This document shows, one piece after another, positions 998 through 21,084 of a DNA stretch of 21,084 nt. Source of the stretch: Candidatus Thorarchaeota archaeon SMTZ1-45 (GTDB lineage: Archaea; Asgardarchaeota; Thorarchaeia; Thorarchaeales; Thorarchaeaceae); contig LRSL01000056.1 in NCBI GenBank assembly GCA_001563335.1, positions 1 to 21,084 of the forward strand. The letters are read 5' to 3'. Within the stretch, counting starts at the first letter, position 1. Every line of letters begins with the position of its first letter. The translations under genes and the position numbers were made by a program. A model generated the notes under the pieces. The model saw only the letters and a list, made by a program, of their open reading frames with translations. It searched no databases and was not told the origin of the DNA.

Positions 998-3109
998 TTG
1001 TCTCACTTGTATAAGAAATTCGTGAAGGAAAGAGTTACCGCCTTAGTGAGTGAAACTGAGAACATCCGAAACGTAACGATAATAGCTCATATTGACCATG
1101 GAAAAACCACACTAAGTGATTCATTGATTGCTGCTTCTGGATTGCTTTCCAAGGAAGTTGCTGCGTCAGCCAGACTTCTCGATTATGATTATATCGAACA
1201 ACAGAGAGGTATCACGATTAAAGCGTCTGGAATTTCTTTAATTCATTCATTTCAAGGAGTAGACCACCTGATCAATCTTGTAGACACTCCGGGGCATATC
1301 GATTTCTCAAGTCATGTAACCCGAGGCCTTCGACTTACCGATGGTGCAGTAATTGTAGTTGATGCGATCGAAGGCATAATGGTTCAAACTGAAACTGTGA
1401 CAAGACAAGCGATGATGGAACTGGTTAGACCAGTGCTCTTTGTGAATAAGGTTGACAGGCTGATCAGAGAACGAAGATTGAACAGTCAAAAGACTGCTTC
1501 AGAAATTAATAAACTAGTTAGAGAATTCAATGCAATGCTTGGAAAGTACCTTGACGATAAAAGACTGGAAGAATGGGAGATATCCTTCAGCAATGGTTCG
1601 CTTAGTGTAGGTTCAGCAATTGATAAATGGGGACTCGATATAGTTACTCTGAAGGAATACACTGGAGGCAGTGAAAAAGCTGCGGATTTGACAAATGCGT
1701 TCCTCTCAATTCTTGATGAGATTGAAAAAGCATACAAGGCTGGAAAAAGAAAGGAGATAGGTGAGAGGTTTCCTGTTGCCAGGGTAGTATTGGATTCTGT
1801 TGTTAGAGTAGTTCCAAATCCCAAAGAGGCACAGTCATATAGAATCCCTATGCTTTGGGAAGGTAGTCCAGATTCGGAGATTGGAAGAAGTCTCATTAAT
1901 TGTAGTGCAAAAGGCCCTTGTATTTGTGTTGTTGGAGAGGTCCAACCGGATAGACATGCATCTACTGTTACAGCCGTGAGGATTTTTTCTGGAACTTTAG
2001 AGCGAGCAAAGCTTCTGACTAATCTAAGAACGAGAGAACAAAGGAAGTCACTGCAGATTGGTATGTATATGTCAAAAACTCGAGTCGATCTTTCGCAAGT
2101 GCCCGCAGGAAATTTGGCATTCATTTCGGGATTGAGAAACATTGCGGTTGGTGATACTCTTGTTGAAACAGAAACTTTCGAAAAAACAACAGAAACAATC
2201 CCTCCGATGATTGCACTGCAATATCCGACAGAGCCAGTTGTAACCTACGCAATAGAACCAAAGAGCTTAGTAGATTTGGGAAACATACAAGCACCAATTG
2301 AAGCATATGTGAAAACAGATCCCGCTCTAGAATTCGAAGTCAATCCAGAAACAGGTGAAATGCTCCTTTCGGGAGCAGGAGAGCTTCATATTGAGATTAC
2401 AGTTGAGAAACTTAGTAGGCAAGGATTAGAAGTCACACTTGGAAAACCAATGGTCCTTCTGAGAGAACAACTTACAACTGATGGTAAACCATTTTCTAGT
2501 GTAAATGAGAATGTCAGTTCATTCACTATTCGTGCGATTATTACATCCGATGAAATAGTGCCAGACACCCTTGGAACAGTGATTGATAAAGATCTAGGGT
2601 CGTCCTCCTGGATTATCGATTGTACTAAGACAATCAATCCGTTTGGAGACGAAGCTCAGTTGATTAAGGAGGCATTTAGGACAATCATTCGAAATGGACC
2701 ATTACGTGGTGAAAAAATGCGAAGATTGGGATTACTTATAGAAGGAGTACATATCAAGTCAGAAGCACCTGAAACTTCATGGAGAGACATCACGCAACCA
2801 CTGATAGATGTAGCCCGAAAAAGTGTATCAACAGGTGCCCCGGTTGTTTTGGAACCATGGATACATCTTGAAATTAGCACTCCTGAAGAGTATGTTGGAA
2901 CCTTGAGCGCCATCATTTCAAGGAGAAAAGGACAGGTTCTGGAAATAAACTCCAACAGATCTCTTTACAGACTTGACGCAGAGATACCTGTGAAAGAATC
3001 ATTTGGTCTAGCTAATGAGATTCGAACTTCCACTTCCGGATGGGCAACATGGGGAGCTCGAACTGGAGGTTATCGAAACATCAAAAATCCTGAGATTCGT
3101 TTTGACTAA
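998..3109 (+). CDS. Elongation factor 2 paralog (aEF-2p-like translational GTPase) lacking the diphthamide HRG loop
   Basis: G1 AHIDHGKTT, G2 RGITI, G3 DTPGHIDF, G4 NKVD; domain III ETGEMLLSGAGELHIEI; domain V LEP...ESFGLANEIRTSTSG. The HEDxxHRG loop is replaced by IKSEAPETSWRD. Confidence 0.9.
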   Translation: MSHLYKKFVKERVTALVSETENIRNVTIIAHIDHGKTTLSDSLIAASGLLSKEVAASARLLDYDYIEQQRGITIKASGISLIHSFQGVDHLINLVDTPGHIDFSSHVTRGLRLTDGAVIVVDAIEGIMVQTETVTRQAMMELVRPVLFVNKVDRLIRERRLNSQKTASEINKLVREFNAMLGKYLDDKRLEEWEISFSNGSLSVGSAIDKWGLDIVTLKEYTGGSEKAADLTNAFLSILDEIEKAYKAGKRKEIGERFPVARVVLDSVVRVVPNPKEAQSYRIPMLWEGSPDSEIGRSLINCSAKGPCICVVGEVQPDRHASTVTAVRIFSGTLERAKLLTNLRTREQRKSLQIGMYMSKTRVDLSQVPAGNLAFISGLRNIAVGDTLVETETFEKTTETIPPMIALQYPTEPVVTYAIEPKSLVDLGNIQAPIEAYVKTDPALEFEVNPETGEMLLSGAGELHIEITVEKLSRQGLEVTLGKPMVLLREQLTTDGKPFSSVNENVSSFTIRAIITSDEIVPDTLGTVIDKDLGSSSWIIDCTKTINPFGDEAQLIKEAFRTIIRNGPLRGEKMRRLGLLIEGVHIKSEAPETSWRDITQPLIDVARKSVSTGAPVVLEPWIHLEISTPEEYVGTLSAIISRRKGQVLEINSNRSLYRLDAEIPVKESFGLANEIRTSTSGWATWGARTGGYRNIKNPEIRFD

Positions 3110-3118
3110 ATGTCAAGG

Positions 3119-5419
3119 TTAACGTCGAAGATAGAACCTTCTATTCAAAACAGTTCCAAGTAGTGAAACTACTCTACGGTCCACTAGAGATACACCATCG
3201 ATCATTAGCAGTGCTCGATTCAGATTTGAGAAGACTGCATTAAGGTAAGGTTGGGCTTCAACCATTTCTGATTGTTCAACCATTTGAAGATAGGCGTCTG
3301 CGATTTTAATCAATCCAAGCCAGTCTTCGGCTAAAAGGTAGTCATATTGAGTTTGATCAGAAACAATGAGAGTTCCAGGAAATTTGCTCTTATCAACATA
3401 GGCTGCATATTGATTTTCAAGCGCTAGTGAAAAACGACGCAAAAGCTGTGATATCGATGAGGATGTTGCTTTAATGAACTCTGCTGACTCAATAAATGAT
3501 GGTTCTATTCTAAGGACATCACCAAATGCAATAGCAGCTCCATAGAAACCACTAGCCAATTCAGAGTAGTCCTTGTTATCATAAAATGCTCTTATTGTCT
3601 GGACAAGGTATGTTTGACCTAACCAATATTGAGCCAAAAGAGGATCGGTTTCAAGGACAGTGTCGTCTACAGGAGGTTGGATACGGCCACCAACCTCAAC
3701 GTTTAGTGCACTCAAATTCATCTTTGCTGTTGATAGAGCTGCCATTAAGCTAGCAACATTAGAAAGCTCTGATGCATTCTGACTCATAATCTTGGATCGG
3801 TCCAGAAGAGTGTTCCATGAGGACTCTATGAATGGTACGACAAGTGAAACACCTTGAATAAAGATCGAATCTTCATCCATTTGTACATCGAAAAGTAACC
3901 TATCGATATCATCTAGAAGCCTCATGAGTCTTGGAGGGATTGTACCTCCATGTCGAATTAGCAACCAAACGACATTATAGGTTGCAATTGCTACTTCTAC
4001 GAAAGCGCGATTGTCAGTAGGAAAGAGAGGAACATATTGTACAAGAATCTCACGAAGTGGATCTTGGATGTCTATATCTGACCTTTCAATCACACGCATC
4101 TTAGAAAGTGCTAAACCCATTCTAGTCCCAATGAGCTCGATTTCTGAAATCCGACCCTCAGAGAAATGGTCTTCTCTTAGTTTCACAGCTTTTTCAAAAG
4201 CTTCCACTCCAGTTGACCAAAACTCATCACATTCTGTGCATAGGCATGCCCAACCTATTGCATTCTCGGTTCTAGCAACTTCAAGGTCAGTATCAGGGTA
4301 TATGTCTTTCAATTCCCGTAGTAATTCCTTAGCTGCATCAAAATACTCTGTTGCTTTAGTGATGCTTTCATGATCACCAAGTAACCCATGTGCGAAACCA
4401 AGTCCTGCTAACGTTTTGAATATGTGAATTCTTTGACTTGCATCTAAGTCTTCAATACTATAGAATATTCTGAGTCCAAGCTGGAGCCGCTCTATGGCTT
4501 GAGGAACGCCCTCGCGCCAACCGTTTGCCAAGATACTCGAACCAATAACAAGGTGAGCTAACCCCACTTCAGGTTTTCCCACAAGTTTTGCGTTAAAAGC
4601 TAAATCATAGAGTTCTGCGGCTTTATCGCCAATATCGCGTGCAGTACGGTGTGAAACCGAATCATCTCTAGTTTCATTTACTCCTAGTTGGAGATTGACC
4701 GCCGCAAGCCAAACAGGATCATTTAGTGCTCTAGCTCTTCGCTCTAAATCCTTTAATTTCTCTCGAGCATCTTCAAATAGTCGGAGTTCCGTGAGAACAC
4801 AGGAATGGTCAAACGTAAGCTCATATAAAAGATCTTTTAGGCCAATCTCATTGCTTATCTCAATCAATCGATTAAGAAGTAGTTCAGCACCCTCAAAGAA
4901 ACCCTCCTCAGATAGAACCCATGCAAGATTGTGCACTTCATACAAAGCAAGATTGGTAGATCCCTCATGACGTCTATCGTAAATCGCATTTAGTGTCATG
5001 AGAACTTCGTCAGCTAGGAAAGGGAGTAGAGGTCTGAGATTAAGACGAATTGAAGAACTTAGTGCTTGTGAAAGCTCACCAAGCATGTCAATGAGATTGG
5101 GAATTGCTTCAATATCCGGAAGTAGCTCACATTCAGAGCGTCTGAAACTATTCGTATATCTTGTGTCAAGTAACAATAGTAGTTCAGGAAGTACGCGGCT
5201 TTTATGGAAAGACAATCGAATCGATAACTCAGTAAGCTTAGCACTAGCAAGACCAGTTCTACGAAGAATTATCTCTTCAATGGCACGTGCTATATCAAAG
5301 AGAGTATTTGCTTCTTCACTGTCATCGAAAGGGATATTCTGAACTGCTGAGAGCCCATCATCGAGAGATAGGTTTGCACAGAGTATGTCTCTCAATGTTG
5401 CTATCAACAGGTCTTGCAA
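3119..5419 (-). CDS. Large alpha-helical TPR-like repeat protein, function unknown
   Basis: 766-aa ORF with TPR-like helical pairs (HNLAWVLSEEGFFEGAELLL, GLGFAHGLLGDHESITKATEYFDAA, ENAIGWA). A GAGAGG SD-like sequence precedes the TTG start. Confidence 0.65.
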   Translation of the reverse strand: MQDLLIATLRDILCANLSLDDGLSAVQNIPFDDSEEANTLFDIARAIEEIILRRTGLASAKLTELSIRLSFHKSRVLPELLLLLDTRYTNSFRRSECELLPDIEAIPNLIDMLGELSQALSSSIRLNLRPLLPFLADEVLMTLNAIYDRRHEGSTNLALYEVHNLAWVLSEEGFFEGAELLLNRLIEISNEIGLKDLLYELTFDHSCVLTELRLFEDAREKLKDLERRARALNDPVWLAAVNLQLGVNETRDDSVSHRTARDIGDKAAELYDLAFNAKLVGKPEVGLAHLVIGSSILANGWREGVPQAIERLQLGLRIFYSIEDLDASQRIHIFKTLAGLGFAHGLLGDHESITKATEYFDAAKELLRELKDIYPDTDLEVARTENAIGWACLCTECDEFWSTGVEAFEKAVKLREDHFSEGRISEIELIGTRMGLALSKMRVIERSDIDIQDPLREILVQYVPLFPTDNRAFVEVAIATYNVVWLLIRHGGTIPPRLMRLLDDIDRLLFDVQMDEDSIFIQGVSLVVPFIESSWNTLLDRSKIMSQNASELSNVASLMAALSTAKMNLSALNVEVGGRIQPPVDDTVLETDPLLAQYWLGQTYLVQTIRAFYDNKDYSELASGFYGAAIAFGDVLRIEPSFIESAEFIKATSSSISQLLRRFSLALENQYAAYVDKSKFPGTLIVSDQTQYDYLLAEDWLGLIKIADAYLQMVEQSEMVEAQPYLNAVFSNLNRALLMIDGVSLVDRRVVSLLGTVLNRRFYLRR

Positions 5420-5473
5420 AGGAGCCTCTCCTATCCGATGATGCTCTCTCTTCCTGCTTTAAAGGTTTCACAG

Positions 5474-5480
5474 AAAAAAA
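5474..5480 (-). terminator. Putative archaeal oligo-T terminator after the second KaiC-like gene
   Basis: A7 on the + strand (T7 on the - strand) immediately after the TAA at 5481-5483. Confidence 0.4.
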
Positions 5481-6194
5481 TTATCGATGTATAACAAAAT
5501 CATGCCACTCACGAGAGGTGTCAGTCCCCCTCATACGCTCCATCCTAATTTGGTGGCGAGGTATTGGACCGCTATCATCAATTCTGAATCTCAGAACTGC
5601 ATCAGCTAGGTAGGAATAGGTTGCATATGTCGTTTCCTCATGTACACCCTCCTCAAGAATATACATGATACTATGCGATCCTTGCTTAATTCTACCACTC
5701 AACCGTTGAACTGCTCGTGGCATAGTAGCAGGAGTAGAATGAAGAATCAATGTGGAAAGACTGTCAATAACCACACGTGCGACTACAAGATTCTCCAGGA
5801 CCTCGGATAGGACAATTCCAAGTTCACTGATATCATCCACTTTTGTTAGGGACCTTGCAGGACCAAGCGTTGGAGCACCCATTCGCTCGGAGTATCCATC
5901 AATGAAGATGAACTTGCCAGATAGCTCATCTTCATCTATTGTCCATCCATGGCGACTCATATCATTTCGAATGACTCTTGGAGATACATCAGTTGTAACA
6001 AATACAGCTGGAAAGCCGGATCCAAGCCCCTCAGCGAGGAATGCCTCAGCATAGGTTGTCTTTCCCGACCCAAGAGGACCAACCAACATGTATGACACTT
6101 GCGTAAGTTGACCAAACTTGACAAGATCACTAATCATAGGAGTGGCTTTTGCTGGTGGTTGCACCACCCTTTGTGTGTTCTGATTCTCAACCAC
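5481..6194 (-). CDS. Single-domain KaiC/RAD55-like RecA-superfamily ATPase, degenerate catalytic site (CII-like)
   Basis: Walker A GPLGSGKT, Walker B VVIDSLS, SYLADAV, RMRG. The catalytic EE position reads TTDV. A GAGGA SD precedes the GTG start. Confidence 0.85.
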   Translation of the reverse strand: MVENQNTQRVVQPPAKATPMISDLVKFGQLTQVSYMLVGPLGSGKTTYAEAFLAEGLGSGFPAVFVTTDVSPRVIRNDMSRHGWTIDEDELSGKFIFIDGYSERMGAPTLGPARSLTKVDDISELGIVLSEVLENLVVARVVIDSLSTLILHSTPATMPRAVQRLSGRIKQGSHSIMYILEEGVHEETTYATYSYLADAVLRFRIDDSGPIPRHQIRMERMRGTDTSREWHDFVIHR

Positions 6195-6219
6195 TTTAAG
6201 GTCCTCGCTGTTTCTCCGA

Positions 6220-6966
6220 TTAACGCCCAGGACTGATTTCGCCAGGCCATACTCGGATTCCTTCGTCGGTTATTCTCATGGAATGAATCCTTGAACTATG
6301 CTTTGAGCCTCTCAATTTGAGAACCTCAATTGAACGAGATCGTGATGTGTCACTTATTTTCTCGTTATAAAGTACAATAACACCTGATGCTAAGAAGGCT
6401 TCGATGTCAAAAACACCAAATCCCTGTTCATGAGCTGGAATTTCGCTGGTAAGAAGGAGCGTACAACCAGTCCTTGTGATACTAGCAGCGAGCTTGAAGA
6501 ATTCCTCACGAAGGATATCTCGACTTTTAAATTTATACGCTAGAATTGAAAGGGTGTCGAGAACAACACGTTTTGCATTCAATTTCTTCACATGATTGAG
6601 AATAATAGCCTCCAGTCCGGAAAGGTCAAAGCTGGGATACTCTCCAATAGTTACTGGAGCTACTTCCTTAGATGGTGACAGGTCTACTATTGAAATCTTC
6701 TTTTCCTTCTCAAGCTTCTCGAGGTCCATTCCAAATCGAATCATGTTCCTTTTAATGAGGTGAGGAGGCTCTTCGAGTGTTACTAATACGCCAGCTTCAT
6801 TATAATCAGTTGCACCCTTATAGATGAACTGAGTTGCAAGAATGCTCTTTCCTGTCCCAGCTTTTCCAGCGACAAGTATTGTATCACCTCTGGGAAAGCC
6901 GCCCTCAATTAGTTCATCGAGGCCGGGAATTCCAGTCTTTACTCGTTCTATTGTAGTGTCGCTCAT
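6220..6966 (-). CDS. Single-domain KaiC-like ATPase (CI-like), catalytic motifs intact
   Basis: RVKTGIPGLDELIEGGFP, Walker A GKAGTGKS, TLEEP, RVVLDTLS, EAFLASGVIVL, RSIEVLKLRGSKH, ITDEGIRVWP. Confidence 0.92.
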   Translation of the reverse strand: MSDTTIERVKTGIPGLDELIEGGFPRGDTILVAGKAGTGKSILATQFIYKGATDYNEAGVLVTLEEPPHLIKRNMIRFGMDLEKLEKEKKISIVDLSPSKEVAPVTIGEYPSFDLSGLEAIILNHVKKLNAKRVVLDTLSILAYKFKSRDILREEFFKLAASITRTGCTLLLTSEIPAHEQGFGVFDIEAFLASGVIVLYNEKISDTSRSRSIEVLKLRGSKHSSRIHSMRITDEGIRVWPGEISPGR

Positions 6967-7295
6967 TCTGACTCATCCTTCTTTTTCGTCAATACTTTAG
7001 CACCAAGAACCATCTTCATCAGTAAGTCTGGTTCGGGAATACCGGTTACTGACACTCCACCTATCATTACTGTTGGAAGAGCAAAGATACCATACTCTTC
7101 GGCGGCTTCTGGATTCTCGCTGACGTTAATCACTTTCAACGTAAATACGTCAGAGCCAAAGTTTTCAATTGTTTCTCTTATTACTTCCTCTGCTCGTGGA
7201 CAAAATGCGCAAGAGTCAGACTTGAAGAAAACGACCTCGATTGTTTCAGAGTCGTCCTCTTCTATCGATGCCTTGCGTGTCTTTTTGTCCGACAA
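6963..7295 (-). CDS. Thioredoxin-fold protein with CAFC motif and KaiB-like segment
   Basis: CxxC (CAFC) and the cis-Pro motif ALPT; VFTLKVINVSENPEAAEEYGIFALPTV. An AGGAG SD precedes the TTG start, and the stop overlaps the KaiC-like start (ATGA). Confidence 0.85.
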   Translation of the reverse strand: MSDKKTRKASIEEDDSETIEVVFFKSDSCAFCPRAEEVIRETIENFGSDVFTLKVINVSENPEAAEEYGIFALPTVMIGGVSVTGIPEPDLLMKMVLGAKVLTKKKDESE

Positions 7296-7411: not shown

Positions 7412-7807
7412 TCAGTACTTCAATAGACGCTTGATTCTTGTTGCTGCTTTTCCTATTGGTCGTGAATGATATCTAACATCACGAGGCATGACAGCAGCCA
7501 AAATGAGTGCCTGCTTTCCAGTAGTCCCAATCTTCTTGAAGACTGCTTTCCCATGAGTGCACCGAAGACTAATATCACGAATATCACCAAGCATCAATTC
7601 TTTCCTAACTCGCTCAGCTGAGTCAGAGATAAAACCAGAGACTGCCGCAACAACATCTCGATCTGCACCGGAAGAAACTGCTGAGGCAATTGAGAACCCA
7701 TCGTCTCTGACAAGAGCGGCGAGTGTAAATCCACCCTCCTTATTCATTTGCTCGAGAATCTTTGGAAGAACACTATAGTCAGGACGACTCATCCTAATTA
7801 TCTCCAT
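7412..7807 (-). CDS. Roadblock/LC7 (MglB-like) domain protein
   Basis: GGFTLAALVRDDGFSIAS, VVAAVSGFISDSAERVRKELMLG and terminal helix KAATRIKRLL match the roadblock pattern; 131 aa. Confidence 0.85.
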   Translation of the reverse strand: MEIIRMSRPDYSVLPKILEQMNKEGGFTLAALVRDDGFSIASAVSSGADRDVVAAVSGFISDSAERVRKELMLGDIRDISLRCTHGKAVFKKIGTTGKQALILAAVMPRDVRYHSRPIGKAATRIKRLLKY

Positions 7808-7927: not shown

Positions 7928-8476
7928 ATGCCTGCTGAGTACCGCTACAAGATTGTCATGTTAGGAGACGGTGCTGTAGGCAAAACAGCTATGACAACTC
8001 GATTTACCCAGAACTTCTTTGATACAGACTACAAACGCACTATCGGGAGTGACTTTGCTGTTAAAAGACTTCAACTAGATGATATTAATGCGCATGTGAC
8101 TCTGCAAATATGGGATCTTGCAGGTCAGCCAAGATTCGAGTCTGTGCGTCAAGGATTCTATAGAGGTGCGCGAGGTGGTCTCTTGCTATATGATGTGACT
8201 CGAAGACGGACATTCATTAATATAGAAAACTGGAAAGAAGAAGCTTTCAGGAGTCTACAAAAAGAGATACCTTTGGTCGTAGTAGCAAACAAGGTAGACC
8301 TGAAAGATAGTCGAGTTGTCGCTACAGAAGAGGGAGAAGAGTACGCCAAGAATAACAGTTTCATGTATGTTGAGTCTAGTGCATTAACTGGAGAAAATGT
8401 CGAAGAGGCATATGCCAATCTTTGTAGGATAATGATTGAAGAATCTAAAGACATCAGCGAAATGACATCAACATAG
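7928..8476 (+). CDS. Rab-like small GTPase (Asgard type, no C-terminal prenylation motif)
   Basis: G1 GDGAVGKT, G2 TIG, G3 WDLAGQ, G4 NKVD, G5 SAL; RabF-like IGSDF, TLQIW, RFESVR, FYRGA, LLYDVT. Confidence 0.93.
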   Translation: MPAEYRYKIVMLGDGAVGKTAMTTRFTQNFFDTDYKRTIGSDFAVKRLQLDDINAHVTLQIWDLAGQPRFESVRQGFYRGARGGLLLYDVTRRRTFINIENWKEEAFRSLQKEIPLVVVANKVDLKDSRVVATEEGEEYAKNNSFMYVESSALTGENVEEAYANLCRIMIEESKDISEMTST

Positions 8477-8482
8477 CAATCG

Positions 8483-9610
8483 TTATGCTTTCCTGGCGGT
8501 TCCTTTCAATAGACCTAATTCACGTTTGCATTGCCAAACTAGATAGAAGACCTTCTTTGTTGCTAAGGTTTCTTCATTATAATTCGCACAGAGGTCTTCA
8601 AACCTCTTGATTAGTCCATCTCTTGTTTCAAGACTTAATGTAGACTTAATTTCCTCCAAAAGTGCTTCAAATGGAGCTATGGTGGCTGCAAGATCAGTCA
8701 CCTCCCAACGTATGATAGCACCAGTACCATCAGCAGTCAGGAAAGAGGATGTATTGGGATACCACTCAATCCCATCAATTTCACCCATGGTTCTAGCTTC
8801 GCCCTGAATAGCTAGTTTCTCAGTATCCCAGAGATAGATTGTTTTATCGCTAGAACCAGAAGCAAGGTACTTACCATCCTCACTAAAGGAGATTGCTCGA
8901 ACCTCGGTGATATGGCCTCGAAGTATGTGGTCTGCTTTCATCGGTTTCCCAGATGAGTCCCAGAGAATCGTGCTAAGATCGGAGGAGCAGGATGCTAGAC
9001 GAGACCCATCAGGAGAGAAACGGACTTGTTGCACAGCAGCACTGTGTTCACTGTGACGATGAATCATTTTACCAGAGTTTGAATCCCACTCACAAATATT
9101 GGCATCAACAGATCCTGAAACAATTCGATCACCTTTTGGATCCCAGTCACAGGCTACGACATAGAAACCGTGTCCCTTCAAATGGAGAATCCGTGAATGA
9201 TTTTCAACATCCCAGATCATCAGGGTAGTATCACCACTTCCAGACACTAGCTTGTTGCCATCGGGTGAAAAAGCCAATGCAAGAACAGGATATTCATGAC
9301 CTTCTAAAGTGGCAATACAATCTCCAGTTCTGATATCCCAGAGTTTCACAACACGTTCAACACTTCCAGAGGCTACAATGTCACCTCTTGGACTAAAGGC
9401 TATAGAGGTGCAGAGAAACTCATCTTGCATCCGTTGCATCTCTTCACCATTATCAGCAGCAAATAGTCTAATACTGCGGTCCTGCATTGCGGCTGCAAAC
9501 ATACGTCCAACCTTGTTCATAACAAACCGGCGAGTGATCTCAGATCCATGCTCAGCCTGAGTCCTAAGTATGATTGGTTTCAGAAATATTGAGGTTTCTA
9601 GAGTATCCAT
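8483..9610 (-). CDS. WD40 beta-propeller protein (about 7 blades) with short C-terminal helical domain
   Basis: Seven repeats ending IRLFA, VKLWD, LMIWD, ICEWD, TILWD, IYLWD, IIRWE, several preceded by GH/EH dipeptides, then a helical tail of about 70 aa. Start uncertain (9610 or 9625). Confidence 0.92.
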   Translation of the reverse strand: MDTLETSIFLKPIILRTQAEHGSEITRRFVMNKVGRMFAAAMQDRSIRLFAADNGEEMQRMQDEFLCTSIAFSPRGDIVASGSVERVVKLWDIRTGDCIATLEGHEYPVLALAFSPDGNKLVSGSGDTTLMIWDVENHSRILHLKGHGFYVVACDWDPKGDRIVSGSVDANICEWDSNSGKMIHRHSEHSAAVQQVRFSPDGSRLASCSSDLSTILWDSSGKPMKADHILRGHITEVRAISFSEDGKYLASGSSDKTIYLWDTEKLAIQGEARTMGEIDGIEWYPNTSSFLTADGTGAIIRWEVTDLAATIAPFEALLEEIKSTLSLETRDGLIKRFEDLCANYNEETLATKKVFYLVWQCKRELGLLKGTARKA

Positions 9611-9782
9611 TTCTGTCACACACACAGGACCATTTCAGATGGCTGAGCTTTTAGGCTGCGTAAAAGTCTTGTTGATATGTCATTTATTCAGAGTCCCTGC
9701 ATCGTTTTAATTCAAGAAATTGATGTCACATCACAATAATCATTATCTATAGTCATAATGGCCATCAACAGGAGGACAACTA

Positions 9783-11003
9783 TTGGCTAGGAAAACTGAG
9801 CGTTCAATTGATTCAGCCTTGGGAGGAAGTGAAACAGTCGACCGTTTGAAAAAAGCAATGAAGGGAATCATGAAAAAACCCAATGATATTGTAAACAAGA
9901 TGTTGGCTAATTTAACTAGTATTCAGGCTTGTAAGGATGCTGCACTTACAGGGGATGATGACCTTAGAGTACTAGCTGTTTGCAGACTCGGGGAATTCGG
10001 TGATGCGGCTTTCGAAGCACTAGACATATCTCTGAACGATGAGAACCCTATGGTTCGTACAGTTGCTGCAGGAATGTTAGCATATACCGAAGACAAAGAG
10101 GCAATTGATATTCTCAAGCTATACCTAGTTGATAACAATGAAACTGTGAGAGATGCAATCAAATACTCACTAGGCTGGCTAGAGGAATATGCTACAGATA
10201 AGTACCATGGTACTAGAATTCCCGAGAAATGGGAGAATCCAGGCGAGATACTTCTTGATACAGATGTCATACCATTAAAGACATCGGAAGATGTTGAGGT
10301 GACTAGTACCTACACAGCTGCTCCAGAAAGTCTTGAATTTGGAATGACTGTGGAGAATAATACCTTGGAACCAATTCATGAGGTGTCCATCAAGATTTTG
10401 TTGTATCCAAACGAGAGCCTTGAGCCACTAGAATCCTTAAGCCAAGTAATCGATACAATTGAACCGGGAGGGGGTGAAGCTCTAATCTTTGGTTTCAAAG
10501 TGACGAGTGAAATAGTTGAGGGCGAATTCGTCACATCAGTTCAGTTTATTGATTCAAAAGGCGAAGATATCGCAGCAATCTCTGGTAACATTTTTGTAAG
10601 GTCATTTTTCGAGCAGGTGCTTCCATTAGAAATGACTCCAGAGGAGTTGTTGAGTCTGAAGTCCGAAATGAAAGAGTGGAATAGAGAACACTCTTTGGCC
10701 ATTGAAGCAGCAGAACTTTTTGATATTCTCAAAGACCTTTTCCAGGATTGGAATCTCCATACCGTTCAAACTGAGAGTACAGAGAGAGAGAACATGTTCA
10801 TGGGTATTGTGTCAGGAGCAGCGACAGGAAGGATACATGATAACAAATTGGTTGTCACTCTCCCACTTGTTGGAAGACTCAATGATGACCTATCGAAGTT
10901 GAGGATTGACGTTCTCTCAGAGGATCCTGAAGCACTACACACAGTAGCAAGTGTGTTATTTGAGGCAATCCAGCGAAAGCTTGGTGTTATCGAGATTGAC
11001 TAA
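9783..11003 (+). CDS. HEAT-repeat protein with C-terminal Ig-like plus platform domains resembling adaptin/coatomer appendages
   Basis: HEAT/PBS-like repeats (LRVLAVCRLG, DENPMVRTVAAGML, DNNETVRDAIKYSL); beta-sandwich (FGMTVENNT..IHEVSI..IEPG..FGF); platform-like end (SKLRIDVLSEDPEALHTV). An AGGAGG SD precedes the TTG start. The HEAT call is firm; the appendage call is inferred. Confidence 0.65.
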   Translation: MARKTERSIDSALGGSETVDRLKKAMKGIMKKPNDIVNKMLANLTSIQACKDAALTGDDDLRVLAVCRLGEFGDAAFEALDISLNDENPMVRTVAAGMLAYTEDKEAIDILKLYLVDNNETVRDAIKYSLGWLEEYATDKYHGTRIPEKWENPGEILLDTDVIPLKTSEDVEVTSTYTAAPESLEFGMTVENNTLEPIHEVSIKILLYPNESLEPLESLSQVIDTIEPGGGEALIFGFKVTSEIVEGEFVTSVQFIDSKGEDIAAISGNIFVRSFFEQVLPLEMTPEELLSLKSEMKEWNREHSLAIEAAELFDILKDLFQDWNLHTVQTESTERENMFMGIVSGAATGRIHDNKLVVTLPLVGRLNDDLSKLRIDVLSEDPEALHTVASVLFEAIQRKLGVIEID

Positions 11004-11402: not shown

Positions 11403-11969
11403 TTAAGTGAGTCCACCGGCTTCAAGAATCTTGATTGCCAGCTCAAGGAATGCTGCTTCGACATTAAGACCTGTCTTTGCAGAGGTTTCTAGAAATGAAG
11501 TGATGACACCCTGAGCAGCAATCCTATTCGCTAATTGTTGTCCCTCGTTAGTGGTCACAATTGTTTGAGCCATTACAGGATTGTCTTTGAACTGGTCACG
11601 AAGATCTGTTTTGTTTGCGATCAAAACAATGGGTATCTTCTTACCTGCATTCGTCCAACACTCTTCCACCCAATTCATGAGGTTATCAAAGGATTTTCTC
11701 TCAACTGTCGAATATACAGCTAATGCACCTTGTGCGCCTTTATAGAACGTAGAACGTACGCTTTTGAAGTGCTCCTGACCAGCTAAGTCCCAAATCTGAA
11801 TACTCACGTCATGACCGCCTTCTAGTTGCATCTTCTTGACGGCGAAGTCTGCACCGATGGTGATCATATAGTTGGCCCTGAAGCCTTCTCCCATGTAAGT
11901 TCTACGGAGACTTGTCTTCCCGACGCTTCCATCTCCCATTAATACAACCTTGAACAATGCAGTGACCAT
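11403..11969 (-). CDS. Rab-like small GTPase with insertion after G4
   Basis: GDGSVGKT, TIGADF, QIWDLAGQ, FYKGA, NKTD, ETSAK. A GGTGA SD precedes the ATG; no C-terminal Cys. Confidence 0.93.
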   Translation of the reverse strand: MVTALFKVVLMGDGSVGKTSLRRTYMGEGFRANYMITIGADFAVKKMQLEGGHDVSIQIWDLAGQEHFKSVRSTFYKGAQGALAVYSTVERKSFDNLMNWVEECWTNAGKKIPIVLIANKTDLRDQFKDNPVMAQTIVTTNEGQQLANRIAAQGVITSFLETSAKTGLNVEAAFLELAIKILEAGGLT

Positions 11970-12170
11970 AGTTTGTCACCTGAATGGTAGAGTGTCTTCT
12001 GGACACTAGCGCGGTATTTGATATTTCCGCTATTTGAGTCTATGCCGATTGAATCTCAATGGAAAATAGAATCCGAAACTATCAAGCAGGGGTTTACTTT
12101 CGGGAAACTGTCCCCCTCAGAGCTATACATTCGGACGGACTAAAGAATTCCATAAAACCCACAATCAATG

Positions 12171-12197
12171 GGGCTGTAATATACTGGCTTACAGTCC
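12171..12197. promoter_or_regulatory. Inverted repeat upstream of the PolB2 cassette (operator or RNA hairpin)
   Basis: GGGCTGTAA-N9-TTACAGTCC: 9-bp arms with one mismatch that would be a G-U pair in + strand RNA. Confidence 0.4.
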
Positions 12198-12246
12198 GGA
12201 GACCGCCCTCTGAACTGTGAGTAACGCCACTAAGAGGATGAAGACC

Positions 12247-12516
12247 TTGGGACGAACAGTCCGCACTTATAGAGATGCGGTTAGGATTGAGGAGGCACGA
12301 TGGAAGGACTTCAGACGGACCCTTAGACCGTCCCAGAGAAACCGTTTCGACCGAATTTTCGACTGTGCAAGAGGATTTGCAGATGCAGGAACGATGATGG
12401 TGACACCACGTATCATTGAGGTCATCCTACTATCTGCAGTCTTAGAGATACTTGGAGAGCTCGATGAGATTCAGAGGAGGGTTCAGGTCTTGGAAGAAAA
12501 GATCGATAACAAGTGA
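12247..12516 (+). CDS. Small alpha-helical PolB2-associated protein (arCOG07300-like)
   Basis: (M)GRTVRTYR..E..RWKDFRRTLR....RFDRIF..AR matches the small protein encoded next to archaeal PolB2. TTG 12247 has a GAGGA SD; the ORF track starts at 12217. Confidence 0.75.
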   Translation: MGRTVRTYRDAVRIEEARWKDFRRTLRPSQRNRFDRIFDCARGFADAGTMMVTPRIIEVILLSAVLEILGELDEIQRRVQVLEEKIDNK

Positions 12517-12522
12517 TGATGA

Positions 12523-14802
12523 ATGAAGAAGACAGGATGGCTCTTGGACTGTAGCGTGGACCAGGAGAAGCAGGCACTGACCCTCTGGATCAAGAGCGAG
12601 GGGAAGACCAAGGGCTATACCTATCGTGGATTTCAGCCCTCTGTGTATGTCAGTACAGACCTGATGAGGAGTATGAATTGGAGTAAGAATGACATTCTGC
12701 ATGCGGTCTTGGAACATCCCAAAGTAGTGCACACAGAGATTGTGAGGAAATATACCAGTGTCTATGATGCGGAGAGGTCTCCAGTTCTACAGGTGTTCAC
12801 TACGCCAGATGCTCAGCGAGAAGTAGCAAGAGACCTCGAGAAACTGCCTGGAGCAACAGTGTTTCATGCTGACATTGACCCAGTCCACCAGTTCTTCATT
12901 GCCAAGGACATGTTCGCCTTTGGACGTGTTGAGTTTGAGCTGAGGGGGGATGAGATTGTTGATGTTGAATGTCTTGACGAGCGAGAAAACCCGAAGTATG
13001 AAATTCCTGAGCTCGAAGAACTGGGATTTGAGGTGTTTGTAGACACCGAGCAGATTTTTCCGCGAATGGAGGATGGGATACATCACATTGAGGTCTACTA
13101 CAGAGGAGAAACAATCCGTATCGAGGACGAAGAGGAGAGGAGTATTCTCTACAGGTTTCAGAGAATAATCGATAAGATAGACCCAGATGTTATATTCACG
13201 AGAAGAGGGGATGAGAGTCTCTTTAGATATCTAAGCCTGCGTGCGAAGGTTAACGGGATGGAGCTGAAACTCTCACGAGATGACTCGCCACTAAAGGTAA
13301 CATACCAGGAGCCTCAGTCGTTCTGGCAATACAACCGGATTGTGTTCAAATCTGGAACACAGGTCACATTGAACGGGAGAATCCATATTGACAGGGGAAA
13401 AACCGGCATGCACTTCTTCTCACCTGTGGGACTGGAGGGAGTAGTGGAGAGCTGCCGTCTTGCTTTGGGTCGACCACAGAGAGTTTCACGGATGACAATC
13501 GGTGGAGTGAACGCAGCTGTACAATATTATAATGCCTTCAAGATGGATATCCTCATACCTCCAGTCAAACGAAACCCTGAGTTTCTCAAGACACTGAATG
13601 AACTGGCATCAATCGATAGAGGGGGACTGATTCTCCAGCCACGACCAGACATCTATGAAAACGTTGCAGAGTGCGACTTCTCATCGATGTATCCTACGCT
13701 TATGGTCAACAAGAACATAAGTCCTGAAACCATCTGCACCCGAACGGACTGTCCCTATGGTAGAGAGCACTGTATCCAAGTTCCTGAGCTGAGTTTTAAG
13801 ATCTGTACTCGGAAGAGGGGAATTGTTTCTGAGTCATTGAAGCTGCTTGTGAACAGACGGATGAAGTTCAAGGATTTGATAGAGGAGGGTCAAGATGCCA
13901 AGAAGTACGAGTTTGTTCAGAACACTCTGAAGGGGGTCCTAGTTTCATGCTTTGGCTATCTTGGCTTTAAAAACGCAAAATTCGGACGGGTTGAGGCTCA
14001 CACTGCAGTTACTGCATTTGCAAGAGATGTCATGCTCAGGACCCAAGAGATTGGAGAAGAAATGGGGCTTGAGATGATTCATGGTATTGTGGACTCAGTC
14101 TGGCTTCAGGCTGAAGGAGAGGTGGAATACGACAACGTGGTTGAGTTCTGTGAGCGTGTGACCAAGGATGTTGAGATTCAGATGTCACCCAAGGGAGTCT
14201 ACAGATGGATGGTCATTCCATCTTCTCGTCTACACCCCTCGATTGCCCCACTGAACCGGTACTATGGAGTCTACAGAAATGGAGGAATAAAAACGCGAGG
14301 GATTGAAACCCGTCGACGTGACACATGTCTCTATGTCGGAGATTGTCAGAAAGAGATGATCAAGACCCTTTCACGAGGTCGGGACAAGGCAGGGTTTCTC
14401 GAACAGATACCAAGCACATACATGGTATGTCAGGAGTACATCAATAGGCTCCATGATGACGATGTTGACCTTAGAGACCTGATTCTTAATTCCACACTCA
14501 CAAGAAATCCCCATGAGTACCGCGCCACATCAAGGGCTGCAGTGGTTGCTCAGCAATTAGTCAAAGCCGGTCGAGAGCTACATGCGGGCCAAAAGGTTCG
14601 ATATGTGATGACATCTGCGGATTCAGAAAACCCCATACGTAGAGTGTGCGCATTGGAGTTGTTCGATGAATCAACGAGATATGACCCTATTGCATATGCG
14701 AAACTCTGCGAACGTGCCTTTGAGAGTCTAGTACCTGCGCAGTATCTTAACTTGAGAAAAGAAACAGATCCTGAGCAGACAGTCCTCATCAAAAATATGT
14801 GA
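12523..14802 (+). CDS. polB2: Family B DNA polymerase, PolB2 (Dpo2) group
   Basis: Motif A ECDFSSMYP and motif B K..LVSCFGY; motif C reads HGIVDS instead of YGDTDS; KTRGIETRRRD. Exonuclease motifs are degenerate. The small partner gene is adjacent. Confidence 0.88.
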   Translation: MKKTGWLLDCSVDQEKQALTLWIKSEGKTKGYTYRGFQPSVYVSTDLMRSMNWSKNDILHAVLEHPKVVHTEIVRKYTSVYDAERSPVLQVFTTPDAQREVARDLEKLPGATVFHADIDPVHQFFIAKDMFAFGRVEFELRGDEIVDVECLDERENPKYEIPELEELGFEVFVDTEQIFPRMEDGIHHIEVYYRGETIRIEDEEERSILYRFQRIIDKIDPDVIFTRRGDESLFRYLSLRAKVNGMELKLSRDDSPLKVTYQEPQSFWQYNRIVFKSGTQVTLNGRIHIDRGKTGMHFFSPVGLEGVVESCRLALGRPQRVSRMTIGGVNAAVQYYNAFKMDILIPPVKRNPEFLKTLNELASIDRGGLILQPRPDIYENVAECDFSSMYPTLMVNKNISPETICTRTDCPYGREHCIQVPELSFKICTRKRGIVSESLKLLVNRRMKFKDLIEEGQDAKKYEFVQNTLKGVLVSCFGYLGFKNAKFGRVEAHTAVTAFARDVMLRTQEIGEEMGLEMIHGIVDSVWLQAEGEVEYDNVVEFCERVTKDVEIQMSPKGVYRWMVIPSSRLHPSIAPLNRYYGVYRNGGIKTRGIETRRRDTCLYVGDCQKEMIKTLSRGRDKAGFLEQIPSTYMVCQEYINRLHDDDVDLRDLILNSTLTRNPHEYRATSRAAVVAQQLVKAGRELHAGQKVRYVMTSADSENPIRRVCALELFDESTRYDPIAYAKLCERAFESLVPAQYLNLRKETDPEQTVLIKNM

Positions 14803-14803
14803 C

Positions 14804-18563: not shown

Positions 18564-19504
18564 TTATTTCAGTTTCCTGTAAGGATGAGTGTCAGGAGGT
18601 GTCACACCAAACTCTAGTTCTGAAGACTCAGCTGCAAAGATATCCCCCATTGCAATCACAGGAAACACATGATTAGCATTTTCAATGGGACCATAGAGCA
18701 CAAAATCAGCCCCCATCATCTGCACAATGAGATTCGATGCAACATCAGCTGTGAAGAAGACTTCTCGATTAATCTTCTTGTACTTTCTTAACCATGTCCA
18801 AGATGATGGGGCATTATGAACTCCAGAACCAGTAGGCTGTCCGTAGATTGTTTTTGATACGAATGTAAAAGCTGCTGCAGATCCAGCACCAGCTCCAATT
18901 GCAGTCACAGCTGTGTCAATCAATGGTTTTGTAATGCCCAACTCTCTTGCAAGATCAATCAGACCCTTCTTGAGTGTCAGAACACCCTTCTCTAACACAG
19001 CCCTTCTGCCTGCGATGGACGGATTTTGAGGATTGAAAGCAAGAAGTATTGCACTTTCTGGTTGGACCTCTCCTAGAGCATCTAACTCCTCATCTGTTGC
19101 TGACACATTGAGGGAATTGTATATTGCACGATCAAGAAGGCCAGTTTCTTCTGCATGTCTTAAGCCTGTGATACGGACCAAAGGGTCTGTCGAGTCAATT
19201 AGAAAAGGTGCGTTAGAGAGGTCAGACACAAAATCAATGCAATGTACTTCTTCAATGCATGTTCAGACTCAGAAAAAATCTGAATAAGCGCAGGATTCCC
19301 GGTCAAAGCGGACATCTCATCTTGCGTCTGAATCAGAGATGTAGCACTCTCTTTGTCAAACACTCCCTTTTTCGAATCAGATACTATCTTGTGTCCACTA
19401 TAGAAGATGGTTCCACCCAGAACAGTTGGTGTTTCCCCAGGATTGCCACCGATTTTAACTCCACCAATGGTGTGGATTACCTGTTCTTTCTCAAATACAA
19501 ACAC
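18564..19504 (-). pseudogene. mtrH: MtrH (methyl-H4MPT:corrinoid methyltransferase) split by a frameshift
   Basis: N-part MFVFEKEQ..IGGNPGETPTVLGGTIFY (19199-19504) and C-part PFLIDST..IYNSLN..LIDTA..GSGVHN..GADFVLYGPIENA (18564-19229) are in different frames. A 5-bp tandem duplication lies at 19235-19244. Confidence 0.88.
19235..19244. repeat. 5-bp tandem duplication CAATG-CAATG causing the mtrH frameshift
   Basis: Removing one copy restores TAC ATT GAT TTT GTG TCT GAC (YIDFVSD) and joins the two ORFs. Confidence 0.9.
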
Positions 19505-19509
19505 CTGTC

Positions 19510-20196
19510 TTATACCTCCCTTCCGAAAAGAATTGTACCAGTTTCATCATCTTGTACCTCTATCAAGACTGACGAGGGGTTCTCTGATACAATAGCACTT
19601 GTTTGTTGACTCGAAACTAAGGAACTCGTTGAATCCAGAATGACACTGTATTCTGGAAGGAGTATCACATCAGCCCTTGATGATAGTTTTGGAGTCTTTT
19701 TAGGTGCGATTTTAGATTCCACCCACATAGCTCCTTTCGAGTACTCACCAGGATTCGTTATACTTAGCTCTTTTGCTTTGGCACCTATTATTTCAGGATC
19801 ATTAGTGTTTATCATGTCTATTAGTTCAATTTGATCTCTAAAATGATCTATACCTTCGAGTGGTATATTCTCTATGTATGGGATTGCACCTTCAGCATCG
19901 ATTATCTTACGTGTTTCTGGGTCAACACCATTTTGATACAGGGCTCTTAGAGAGCGACCTGTTAGGTGACCTGGAACCTCAGGTCCTGATAGAATCAAGT
20001 ATCGTATTTTTGGATTTGATATGATATTGATAATGACCCGTTCAATACCAATATTCTCTGTCTTACAGGTGCCAATTATTGCATACTCTGTATCCACACT
20101 AATCTTCTTGCCTAGTGTGCATATCGCGACACAATGAGTGCTATTTCCAACTTCAAAATCACCTGATATAGGAGGCCATTCACGATCACTGCTCAT
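19510..20196 (-). CDS. mtrA: MtrA/MtxA-like corrinoid protein, soluble (no transmembrane anchor)
   Basis: WPPISGDF.VG, VAICTL, G.CKTENIGIERVI.NIISNP.IRYLIL.G.EV.GH.TG (cobalt-ligand His), GAIPYIEN. The C-terminal extension is not hydrophobic. Confidence 0.92.
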   Translation of the reverse strand: MSSDREWPPISGDFEVGNSTHCVAICTLGKKISVDTEYAIIGTCKTENIGIERVIINIISNPKIRYLILSGPEVPGHLTGRSLRALYQNGVDPETRKIIDAEGAIPYIENIPLEGIDHFRDQIELIDMINTNDPEIIGAKAKELSITNPGEYSKGAMWVESKIAPKKTPKLSSRADVILLPEYSVILDSTSSLVSSQQTSAIVSENPSSVLIEVQDDETGTILFGREV

Positions 20197-20213: not shown

Positions 20214-21084
20214 CTATTCGTTTGTAGGTGGTTCAAATAGAGGTCTATCAATATCTAAGGCAAAGTTTGCCTCAGCTATTGCTGATACTATTGCATTTCC
20301 AATTAGAGCAACAGATGTGAATACTTCCTTAGTGTGAATCATTGAACCATACATTATTGCGTCAGTGGCAAATAGCTGAGCTGCAACCGTTGATGCAACG
20401 AGTGCAGCATTCTGAATAGAATCAATATCGAGCCCAGATTGTTTGATGAATTTCCATGCTGAAGGAGCATTATGTGGTCCTAAACACGTGGGGAGTCCGA
20501 GTTCGGATTTTATTGCCAATGTCGTTCTATACTCAAGGCCATAACCAGCTCCAATGGGCATTGTTGCAGGGTCAATCAGAAATTTCTTGATTCCCATGGA
20601 TTCAGAGAGCATAAGAGCATCTCTTATTGTTTCCATTCTTTCCGGTAATGTTGTGGCTCGTGGAGACCATCCCAACACCACAGCCATGTCAATGGAGCTG
20701 TTTTTCAATACCTCCTTCTCATTATCCTTCATCGATAGGTTGATTGAATTATAGATTGTTCTTGTGGAGAGCCCTGACTCGTCACAGTATTCGATGGCGC
20801 GAATACGAGCTTCAGCATTAGTCGATTCAAACATAAAGGGACCGTCAAAATTCTCAGATAACCATGACAAGTGATTTTCTATTGCTATAGGTGTTCGTCC
20901 ATAGGCTTGGATGACAAGTGGATGACCTGTCTTTTCAACCATTGATAATCCTGTGTTAATCCATTCTTTTGCTGTGTTCTTATCGAAAATGCCTTCTCGC
21001 GTGTTTTCCATTATTGGTTGACCCTTGAAGAATAAACCTCCCACTAAAACAGTGGGATTTTCGCCAGGATGCCCTCCTATAGTA
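20214..21084 (-). CDS. Second, divergent MtrH-family methyltransferase (5' end outside window)
   Basis: The frame continues to the window edge as TIGGHPGENPTVLVGGLFF; also G.FDK..A, IYNSIN, LIDPA, GPHNAPSAW, DAIMYG. Confidence 0.85.
   Translation of the reverse strand, partial: TIGGHPGENPTVLVGGLFFKGQPIMENTREGIFDKNTAKEWINTGLSMVEKTGHPLVIQAYGRTPIAIENHLSWLSENFDGPFMFESTNAEARIRAIEYCDESGLSTRTIYNSINLSMKDNEKEVLKNSSIDMAVVLGWSPRATTLPERMETIRDALMLSESMGIKKFLIDPATMPIGAGYGLEYRTTLAIKSELGLPTCLGPHNAPSAWKFIKQSGLDIDSIQNAALVASTVAAQLFATDAIMYGSMIHTKEVFTSVALIGNAIVSAIAEANFALDIDRPLFEPPTNE

Follow-up and report, generated by a model that had tools for sequence, protein, structure and literature searches.

A thioredoxin gene and two KaiC-like ATPase genes form a probable conserved signalling module beside a Rab-like GTPase gene in Thorarchaeia

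A thioredoxin gene and two KaiC-like ATPase genes in one run

We analysed a stretch of 21,084 nucleotides from Candidatus Thorarchaeota archaeon SMTZ1-45 (assembly GCA_001563335.1, contig LRSL01000056.1, positions 1 to 21,084; hereafter the window), in which the listing of open reading frames (ORFs) and the sequence itself place three ORFs head to tail on the minus strand. The first, Trx (6963..7295, 110 aa, TTG start), encodes a mini-thioredoxin of the MJ0307 type with a CAFCP active site, a cis-proline in the motif ALP, and disordered, charged tails. The second, K1 (6220..6966, 248 aa, ATG start), encodes a single-domain ATPase of the KaiC family (PF06745), and its start overlaps the Trx stop. 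The third, K2 (5481..6194, 237 aa, GTG start), encodes a divergent KaiC-like ATPase that matches both PF06745 and DUF7504. An original prediction, made from the letters of this stretch, had read the three genes as a 'split KaiBC' operon, with a KaiB-like thioredoxin and with the CI-like and CII-like halves of KaiC on separate polypeptides. Its description of the sequence was accurate. The TGA of Trx and the ATG of K1 overlap as ATGA (6966-6963), 25 nt on the minus strand (6195..6219, read from the sequence as 6219-6195) lie between the stop of K1 and the GTG of K2, and the TAA of K2 is directly followed by seven T (minus strand, 5474..5480, read as 5480-5474), a possible archaeal terminator in the window's genome only. 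The motifs that it quoted are also present, with EAFLAS, RSIEVLKLRG and ITDEGI in K1 and SYLAD in K2, and the lack of kaiA that it noted for the window extends to the genome, which has no KaiA. As to function, the locus is probably a conserved signalling module beside a Rab-like GTPase and not a circadian KaiC split into two halves.

Conservation and operon geometry

Synteny was scored in 71 Thorarchaeota loci found with K2, the denominators being the loci with enough flanking sequence. K1 was present in 61 of 61 related loci and Trx in 60 of 60; the trio is thus confirmed as real, and its arrangement is far beyond chance. The operon-like character proposed for it is also borne out by the junctions. 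Trx and K1 overlap by 4 nt in 40 of 60 loci and by 1 nt in 8 of 60, and are never more than 9 nt apart, while the K1-K2 spacer has a median of 25 nt (range 10-78, 68 related loci). These overlaps and short gaps persist while protein identities drop to 47-67%, and Trx and K1 are predicted to be translationally coupled. The T7 tract is not conserved, with a run of at least five T within 40 nt of the K2 stop in just 7 of 69 related loci. A natural Trx-K1 fusion was considered and rejected, as the two loci concerned (L095 and L096) carry separate ORFs 9 nt apart.

A survey of 400 Asgard genomes found orthologue-level matches to K2 (2.2e-63 or better) in the window's genome, 75 of the 85 further members of its family and the one sister-family genome, the next best match standing at 6e-27. 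In a library of 1.84 billion representatives, K2 has just 4 protein matches at 1e-30 or better. Trx has the same range as K2: its orthologue-level matches (2.5e-35 or better) lie at 73 places, in the window's genome, 71 other family genomes and the sister family, with the next best match at 1e-19.

The two ATPases

K1 matches Pfam PF06745 (KaiC ATPase) over profile positions 1-228 of 231 (1.5e-70, 237.6 bits, cut-off 26.6). Its motifs are complete, comprising Walker A GTGKS, TLEE, Walker B and LKLRG, and both TLEE and the P-loop are invariant across 28 K1 sequences. The view of K1 as CI-like was well founded: it scores 171.9 bits on the CI domain of the KaiC in PDB entry 8zn5 against 79.8 on CII, and in the PDB search the best K1 stretch falls in CI in every two-domain KaiC entry listed. 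Scores against the KaiC equivalogs NF006799 (201.1, cut-off 408) and TIGR02655 (152.5, cut-off 546.25) are confined to the first half of the model. A strong solved relative is Pyrococcus horikoshii PH0186 (2zts, 2.8e-48). K1 has no conserved cysteine, C168 being found in 33 of 62 orthologues. In the tree described below, K1 falls among the domains of two-domain KaiCs, and it is predicted to be a single-domain KaiC ATPase with a full catalytic apparatus.

K2 matches PF06745 over profile positions 12-220 (6.8e-29, 101.3 bits, cut-off 26.6) and also reaches the cut-off of DUF7504 (PF24336; 3.5e-9, 37.8 bits, cut-off 27). It scores 56.3 and 34.5 against NF006799 and TIGR02655 (cut-offs 408 and 546.25), in the first half only, and its best PDB match is the single-domain Pyrococcus protein PH0284 (2dr3, 1.1e-17). 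When compared by phmmer with the 8zn5 KaiC, K2 scores 41.0 bits on CI and 13.6 bits on CII, which speaks against its description as CII-like. Invariant in 67 of 67 K2 orthologues are the GK of the P-loop, the DS of Walker B, R220 and R222 of RMRG, and the motif TTDVSPR. RMRG aligns with the LKLRG of K1 and KaiC, and the Asp-Val of TTDVSPR stands at the position of the catalytic Glu pair of K1 and the KaiC domains; the CI and CII domains printed in the alignment mostly have EE there, and one has E-S. In the wider K2 clade, GK[ST] is found in 49 of the 54 non-Thorarchaeal members and Glu-Glu in just 2, Asp-x being the usual pair. K2 contains no cysteine. Its start is doubtful, since in the orthologue alignment residues 1-18 are variable, P19 is invariant and M20 nearly so; the real start may be the ATG at residue 20, and the K1-K2 spacer would therefore be longer. 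K1 and K2 are the only clear KaiC-family genes of the genome, where four more PF06745 matches are partial and lie in larger ORFs.

SYLAD had been placed at the CII phospho-site, and by alignment it does lie there: Ser194-Tyr195 of K2 aligns with the site, which we take to be S431/T432 in the usual numbering and which is Ser-Ser in the KaiC of Cereibacter sphaeroides and Ser-Thr in that of Sphingobium. Ser194 is kept in 66 of 67 K2 orthologues. The family pattern is less favourable, with Ser in just 8 of 54 wider relatives and with Tyr195 as a family-typical aromatic (Y or F in 35 of 54). Because Ser is rare among the relatives and Tyr is the usual aromatic of the family, a phospho-site at Ser194 is possible but not indicated by the sequences.

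A tree test of the proposed split KaiC

The domain phylogeny, obtained by a quick IQ-TREE search, comprised 118 domain sequences: 9 K1 and 9 K2 orthologues, 18 N-terminal (CI) and 18 C-terminal (CII) domains of two-domain KaiCs, domains of triple-domain and GvpD proteins, three KaiC-like sequences from another Asgard family, and 53 single-domain representatives that the search with K2 had brought up. The CI and CII domains were taken from 16 metagenomic two-domain KaiCs, the experimentally studied KaiC of C. sphaeroides plasmid pB and a Sphingobium plasmid KaiC, with no cyanobacterial KaiC. From the 149 sequences collected, 53 of 106 representatives and the GvpD-like protein of one locus (L072) were left out, their match to the K1 profile covering fewer than 150 positions.

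A branch with 95% support in the Shimodaira-Hasegawa-like approximate likelihood ratio test (SH-aLRT) separates all CI, CII, K1, GvpD and triple-domain rows from K2, which sits on a long stem, and 54 single-domain proteins. Constraining K2 to group with CII lowers the log-likelihood by 255 and is rejected by the approximately unbiased (AU) test with p = 1.9e-30, a test that was run after the tree had been seen and on a grouping that was the original prediction's own hypothesis. The identification of K2 as a CII domain is thus contradicted by the 95% branch, by the AU test and by the CI and CII scores, and the missing Glu pair also counts against it. K2 is assigned instead to a single-domain KaiC-like family different from that of K1. 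The tree contradicts the two-polypeptide KaiC, and the sequences do not support the idea that this locus preserves a pre-fusion CI and CII Kai clock.

The thioredoxin

Trx matches Pfam Thioredoxin_3 (PF13192; 1.2e-9, 38.5 bits, cut-off 24.8) and just passes the cut-off of Pfam KaiB (PF07689; 1.6e-6, 28.2 bits, cut-off 27) over profile positions 16-55 of 82. It is the sole sequence in the genome to do so. The NCBIfam KaiB equivalog TIGR02654 gives 23.8 bits against a cut-off of 145.3, and the NCBIfam MJ0307 family TIGR00411 gives 52.8 bits (3e-14) against an equivalog cut-off of 92.75. By these scores the MJ0307 family is the closest named family, of which Trx is no member by the equivalog cut-off. 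A search of the PDB with the Trx family profile found the MJ0307 thioredoxin (1fo5) as the best match over its full length (3.7e-17), followed by MTH895 and then by archaeal protein disulfide oxidoreductases; KaiB chains appeared just at about 1e-4 and over positions 31-73. An hhalign comparison with the KaiB of C. sphaeroides gave 93% probability (E 3.5e-7) over 44 columns outside the CxxC region.

The AlphaFold2 model of Trx, with a predicted local distance difference test score (pLDDT) of 79.8, has the mini-thioredoxin order strand-helix-strand-helix-strand-strand-helix between disordered tails. Foldseek matches listed for it in the top 50 ranks were all thioredoxins or thioredoxin-containing entries, and KaiB was absent among them. 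The CxxC lies at the N-terminus of helix 1 and the cis-Pro before strand 3, as in a thioredoxin, and the fold and the profile score agree. CAFCP (C29, C32, P33) and the cis-Pro of ALP (P74) are invariant in 39 of 39 orthologues. Because the active site and cis-Pro are invariant, 1fo5 is the best match and the fold agrees, we consider Trx a genuine thioredoxin, predicted to be redox-active. The KaiB-like label therefore stands just in part: a weak and partial likeness exists, and it appears to be that of a remote superfamily relative, the MJ0307 thioredoxin being nearest over the full length.

Neighbouring genes

Directly around the trio lie four further genes. P766 (3119..5419, minus strand) begins 61 nt downstream of K2 and encodes a 766-aa, all-helical protein resembling a solenoid of tetratricopeptide repeats (TPR). 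Upstream of Trx, at a distance of 116 nt, lies a gene for a 131-aa Roadblock/LC7-domain protein (7412..7807, minus strand). Divergent from it is a gene for a Rab-like small GTPase (7928..8476, plus strand; Pfam Ras 6e-53), which is flanked by a gene for a 380-aa WD40 beta-propeller protein (8483..9625, minus strand; Pfam WD40 3.8e-49). Across the related loci, P766 was kept in 58 of 59, the Roadblock gene in 56 of 56 and the Ras-like GTPase gene in 51 of 53, with the WD40 gene less strictly kept (42 of 49); the K2-P766 gap has a median of 61 nt.

The GTPase is near-identical to the crystallised Thor-Rab ('Thorarchaeota Rab', PDB 7ezb; 2.5e-119, 182/182 residues). The Roadblock protein falls just below the cut-off of Pfam Robl_LC7 (2.7e-4) and has weak Roadblock matches in the PDB (1.5e-3 and worse). 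P766 has no Pfam match; its AlphaFold2 model (pLDDT 89.8) is a 34-helix solenoid for which Foldseek returned the TPR scaffolds Ctr9, Ski3 and LGN with low TM-scores, and a TPR lead from the ESM Atlas stood at 0.93. Single cysteines are conserved in all three proteins: C83 in 56 of 58 Roadblock sequences, C166 in 50 of 53 GTPases, and C14 and C392 in 53 of 60 and 54 of 60 P766 sequences.

At L066, the locus from the sister family, the genes for the GTPase, Roadblock, Trx, K1 and K2 follow one another in the same direction as a single series, with 46, 76, 0 and 26 nt between successive genes. P766 is absent there, and K2 is abutted by the equivalent (4670-6766 of that locus) of an EF-2-like gene. 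In the window this EF-2/EF-G-like GTPase paralogue (998-3109, plus strand, 703 aa) is convergent to P766. In one Thorarchaeota genus (L095, 3238-4497), a 419-aa ORF that by eye looks like pyruvate kinase lies directly upstream of the Roadblock gene, at the position of the window's GTPase, and a locus with coordinates overlapping that region (L028) has the GTPase about 1.7 kb further upstream.

A few kilobases from the cluster, the window also holds a second Ras-family small GTPase gene (11403-11969, minus strand, 188 aa) and a gene for a 406-aa HEAT-repeat protein (9783-11003, plus strand), the region being rich in GTPase-related genes. The G+C content is 0.47-0.48 at 12001-15000, a stretch that covers a family-B DNA polymerase gene (12523-14802), against about 0.42 elsewhere. 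An MtrH-family gene is divided between two overlapping minus-strand ORFs (19504..19199, profile 1-86; 19229..18564, profile 87-296), and this split at 18564-19504 could be a frameshift, a sequencing error or genuine. Beside it lie an intact MtrH-like gene (21044..20214) and an MtrA-like gene (20196..19510).

Related gene pairs in other Asgard families

Thirteen weaker thioredoxin matches from non-Thorarchaeal Asgard genomes were fetched, 3 of them unlinked paralogues or other proteins and 1 lying at a contig start. Among the best such matches, 9 of 10 with usable flank adjoin a KaiC-like gene, and all 9 keep the CxxC. In six genomes of one Asgard family (loci L100-L105), a CSWCP thioredoxin gene directly follows that of a two-domain KaiC-like protein (about 470-490 aa), as kaiB follows kaiC in C. 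sphaeroides. The N-terminal domain of these KaiC-like proteins looks active and the second domain degenerate, and the adjoining thioredoxins have 86-101 aa. In another family, a K1-like gene (about 1e-63 to 1e-67) comes after a CGFC thioredoxin at two loci. A further locus (L107) repeats the order of the window, its CAFCP thioredoxin being followed by a K1-like and then by a DUF7504-type KaiC-like gene (36.7 bits). In three Asgard families beyond that of the window with a CxxC thioredoxin and KaiC-like pair, no Roadblock, GTPase or TPR genes were found within 3.5 kb.

We also surveyed K1-like and K2-like loci. Among 20 K1-like loci of other families, a Roadblock-domain protein lies beside 5 and a Ras-like GTPase beside 2; among 20 K2-like loci, a GTPase lies beside a K1-like gene in 3, two of which carry a divergent pair of a KaiC-like and a K2-like gene. 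As Roadblock and GTPase genes are numerous and the genomes related, these adjacencies outside Thorarchaeia are suggestive only. At five loci from three further Asgard families (L119, L123, L124, L126 and L129), a K1-like gene stands beside a gene for a protein of 289-420 aa with an N-terminal Roadblock/LC7 domain and a C-terminal portion that has no family assignment. At two loci of another family (L072, 1173-5618, and L073), one strand carries a K1-like gene together with those for a GvpD-like KaiC ATPase (488 aa) and a Ras-like GTPase. A KaiC-like gene and a K2-like gene, the latter with a degenerate P-loop (GPPSVVKT), run divergently from these three, and no thioredoxin is present. The K2-like gene of the first of these loci scores 47.4 bits against DUF7504.

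Complex prediction and proposed mechanism

Complex prediction was run on K1, K2 and Trx, each with a 28-row alignment and with Trx as the partner. Trx obtained a binding score of 0.60 (runs 0.60, 0.64 and 0.48), and the best of 3 controls scored 0.00, including 0.00 when K1 was replaced. The runs share at least 73% of contacts, and the pLDDT of the partner is at least 72. In calibration, 116 of 157 solved complexes and 2 of 215 mismatched pairs attained the mark. The prediction lends weak support to binding of Trx to a K1/K2 complex.

Taking the sequence, synteny and model evidence together, we regard the locus, with fair confidence, as an operon, conserved in Thorarchaeia, in which a thioredoxin partners an archaeal KaiC-like ATPase that acts in signalling. 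In such an operon K1 and K2 would assemble as a RecA-type ring or a pair of rings, in which K1 would hydrolyse ATP and may autophosphorylate, and K2 would bind nucleotide and donate an arginine as a regulatory, hydrolysis-poor subunit. Trx would dock on K1 as a KaiB-analogous adaptor, the redox state of its CxxC setting or reporting the state of the ATPase. The ATPases themselves are unlikely to be disulfide substrates of Trx, because K2 has no cysteine and K1 no conserved one. Output would most plausibly run to the Roadblock protein, the Rab-like GTPase and the TPR scaffold. The stronger proposal that Trx, K1/K2, the Roadblock protein, the Rab11-like Thor-Rab and the TPR scaffold make up one machine, in which redox and energy state gate a eukaryote-like small-GTPase switch, is a speculative one that we hold to be quite unlikely.

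Several observations weigh against reading the locus as a thioredoxin-partnered signalling module. None of the 20 top K1-like loci of other Asgard families has a thioredoxin within 2.5 kb, and the Trx partnership is therefore lineage- or paralogue-specific. Synteny within the family is partly inherited, and the EF-2-like gene farther downstream is syntenic too. Asgard genomes are rich in Roadblock and small-GTPase genes, and part of their adjacency elsewhere could be due to chance. As to the complex, just 18 of the 157 solved complexes reached the mark at a score of 0.60 or lower, together with both of the mismatched pairs that passed; the score rates the placement of Trx without an interface, and the solved KaiB-KaiC CI complexes may bias the model. 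Finally, the 'hydrolysis-poor' character of K2 is deduced from its residues, and an Asp at the first catalytic position might still allow slow hydrolysis.

The rival that survives best takes Trx as an ordinary disulfide reductase, merely co-expressed and reducing its neighbours or unrelated substrates, with no stable ATPase complex. Its full thioredoxin active site and cis-Pro would suit such a role, as would the conserved single cysteines of the Roadblock protein, the GTPase and P766 and the lack of any in K2. Gene overlap is typical of stoichiometric partners, and the conserved overlap of Trx with the K1 start argues against mere co-expression. So do the CxxC thioredoxins that stand beside KaiC-like genes in three Asgard families where the putative Roadblock, GTPase and TPR substrates are absent within 3.5 kb, and the K1-dependence, weakly supported, of the predicted Trx placement. 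We consider a plain reductase unlikely.

Lower still we place inherited synteny without shared function, with K1 and K2 serving in the archaellum or pilus (ArlH/FlaH), in gas vesicles as GvpD-type proteins, or in RadB-like repair. NCBIfam does return weak FlaH/ArlH and RadA/RadB matches, and in the sister family the broader gene order persists with the EF-2-like gene included. The scores are far below the cut-offs, with K1 at 64.5 for FlaH (cut-off 194) and 46.8 for ArlH (215), K2 at 18.6 for ArlH (215), and the RadB match at 15.9 (278). The window contains no archaellum, pilus or gas-vesicle genes, and the tight junctions have been kept at the diverged identities given above, so that this explanation is distinctly improbable.

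Most improbable of all is a two-polypeptide KaiC (K1 as CI, K2 as CII) that would work with a redox KaiB relative as an hourglass timer and resemble the Kai clock's pre-fusion ancestor. In favour of this reading one may cite the CI-likeness of K1 and its place inside the clade holding CI and CII, the alignment of Ser194-Tyr195, with its near-invariant Ser, to the CII phospho-site, the genome's only Pfam KaiB match and the weak predicted Trx-K1 binding; the reading is opposed by the tree and AU test, the higher CI score of K2 and its lack of the Glu pair, the family-typical Tyr and rare Ser, and a likeness of Trx to KaiB over just 40-44 positions that falls far short of the equivalog.

Relation to known systems

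Makarova is said to have described archaeal KaiC-like ATPases, in mBio in 2017, as 'signal transduction hubs'. We know of no thioredoxin or GTPase context for PH0284 or PH0186, the solved relatives of K2 and K1, which are likewise single RecA-like KaiC domains of about 250 aa; where K2 has Asp-Val, the printed alignment shows the Glu pair in PH0284. MJ0307 and MTH895 (1fo5, 1nho) share with Trx a core of about 85 residues, the CxxC, the cis-Pro, the fold and a full-length match, whereas Trx adds charged N- and C-terminal tails and its gene is fixed before that of a KaiC-like ATPase. The KaiBC systems of C. sphaeroides and cyanobacteria resemble the locus in their PF06745 ATPases, in the likeness of K1 to CI, in a small thioredoxin-fold gene abutting the ATPase gene (kaiC and kaiB are 2 nt apart on C. 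sphaeroides plasmid pB) and in the partial profile similarity of Trx to KaiB. They differ in that the locus has two single-domain proteins and no CI-CII fusion, a K2 that is not CII, no KaiA, and a Trx that is predicted to be redox-active and is nearest to the MJ0307 thioredoxin.

A KaiB-like thioredoxin-family partner of archaeal KaiC-like ATPases was already described by Makarova et al. 2016 (PMC4858521), and the pairing of Trx with a KaiC-like ATPase is therefore of a known kind. In the passages available of that paper, the likeness lies in a single-domain KaiC-family ATPase beside a small thioredoxin-fold protein, with signalling as the proposed role. Compared with that system as described there, the Trx of the window keeps the CxxC and cis-Pro, the ATPases form a fixed pair of an active member and an Asp-Val variant with an intact P-loop, and genes for a Rab-like GTPase, a Roadblock protein and a TPR scaffold surround the module as part of the conserved block. 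Inactivated KaiC-like paralogues (iKaiC) are a described theme, according to passages of PMC5847659. Single-domain KaiC homologues of archaea are described by Schmelling et al. 2017 (PMC5520375), who also report that two archaeal KaiC3 homologues have kinase activity; the passages at hand do not state how many domains these two have.

Pairs of a GTPase and a Roadblock protein are represented by MglA/MglB, Rag-Ragulator and Asgard Rab/Roadblock, and here a Thor-Rab-like GTPase gene likewise stands beside a Roadblock-domain gene. In the parts of PMC10933270 that we could consult, GTPase genes of MK-D1 are generally not in operons with Roadblock genes, and the partners of Asgard GTPases are held to be hard to predict from genome layout; within these parts no link to KaiC-like ATPases and thioredoxin is described, and a term search returned no mention of neighbours of Thor-Rab of the K1, K2 or Trx type. 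The literature that we found on Asgard Roadblock proteins and small GTPases does not mention KaiC, and in the literature on archaeal KaiC-like ATPases, thioredoxin/KaiB and Roadblock we found no paper describing this cluster, although supplements may list such neighbourhoods. Three features appear to be new: the fixed pair of an active and an Asp-Val ATPase, a predicted bona fide CxxC thioredoxin as the KaiC-like partner, and the conserved surroundings of the module, with genes for Thor-Rab, a Roadblock protein and a TPR scaffold.

Implications

These results remove the attractive but wrong idea of a pre-fusion CI and CII Kai clock at this locus. The sharply conserved module could make a tractable system in which to study how inputs reach the KaiC-like 'hub' ATPases of archaea. 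Its fixed neighbours include a Roadblock protein and the one Rab-like GTPase of Thorarchaeota that has been crystallised, and it thus offers concrete partner candidates. Should a redox- and energy-gated GTPase machine prove true, it would be a prokaryotic analogue of the nutrient and energy control of Rag-Ragulator and would assign the first regulators to a crystallised Asgard Rab.

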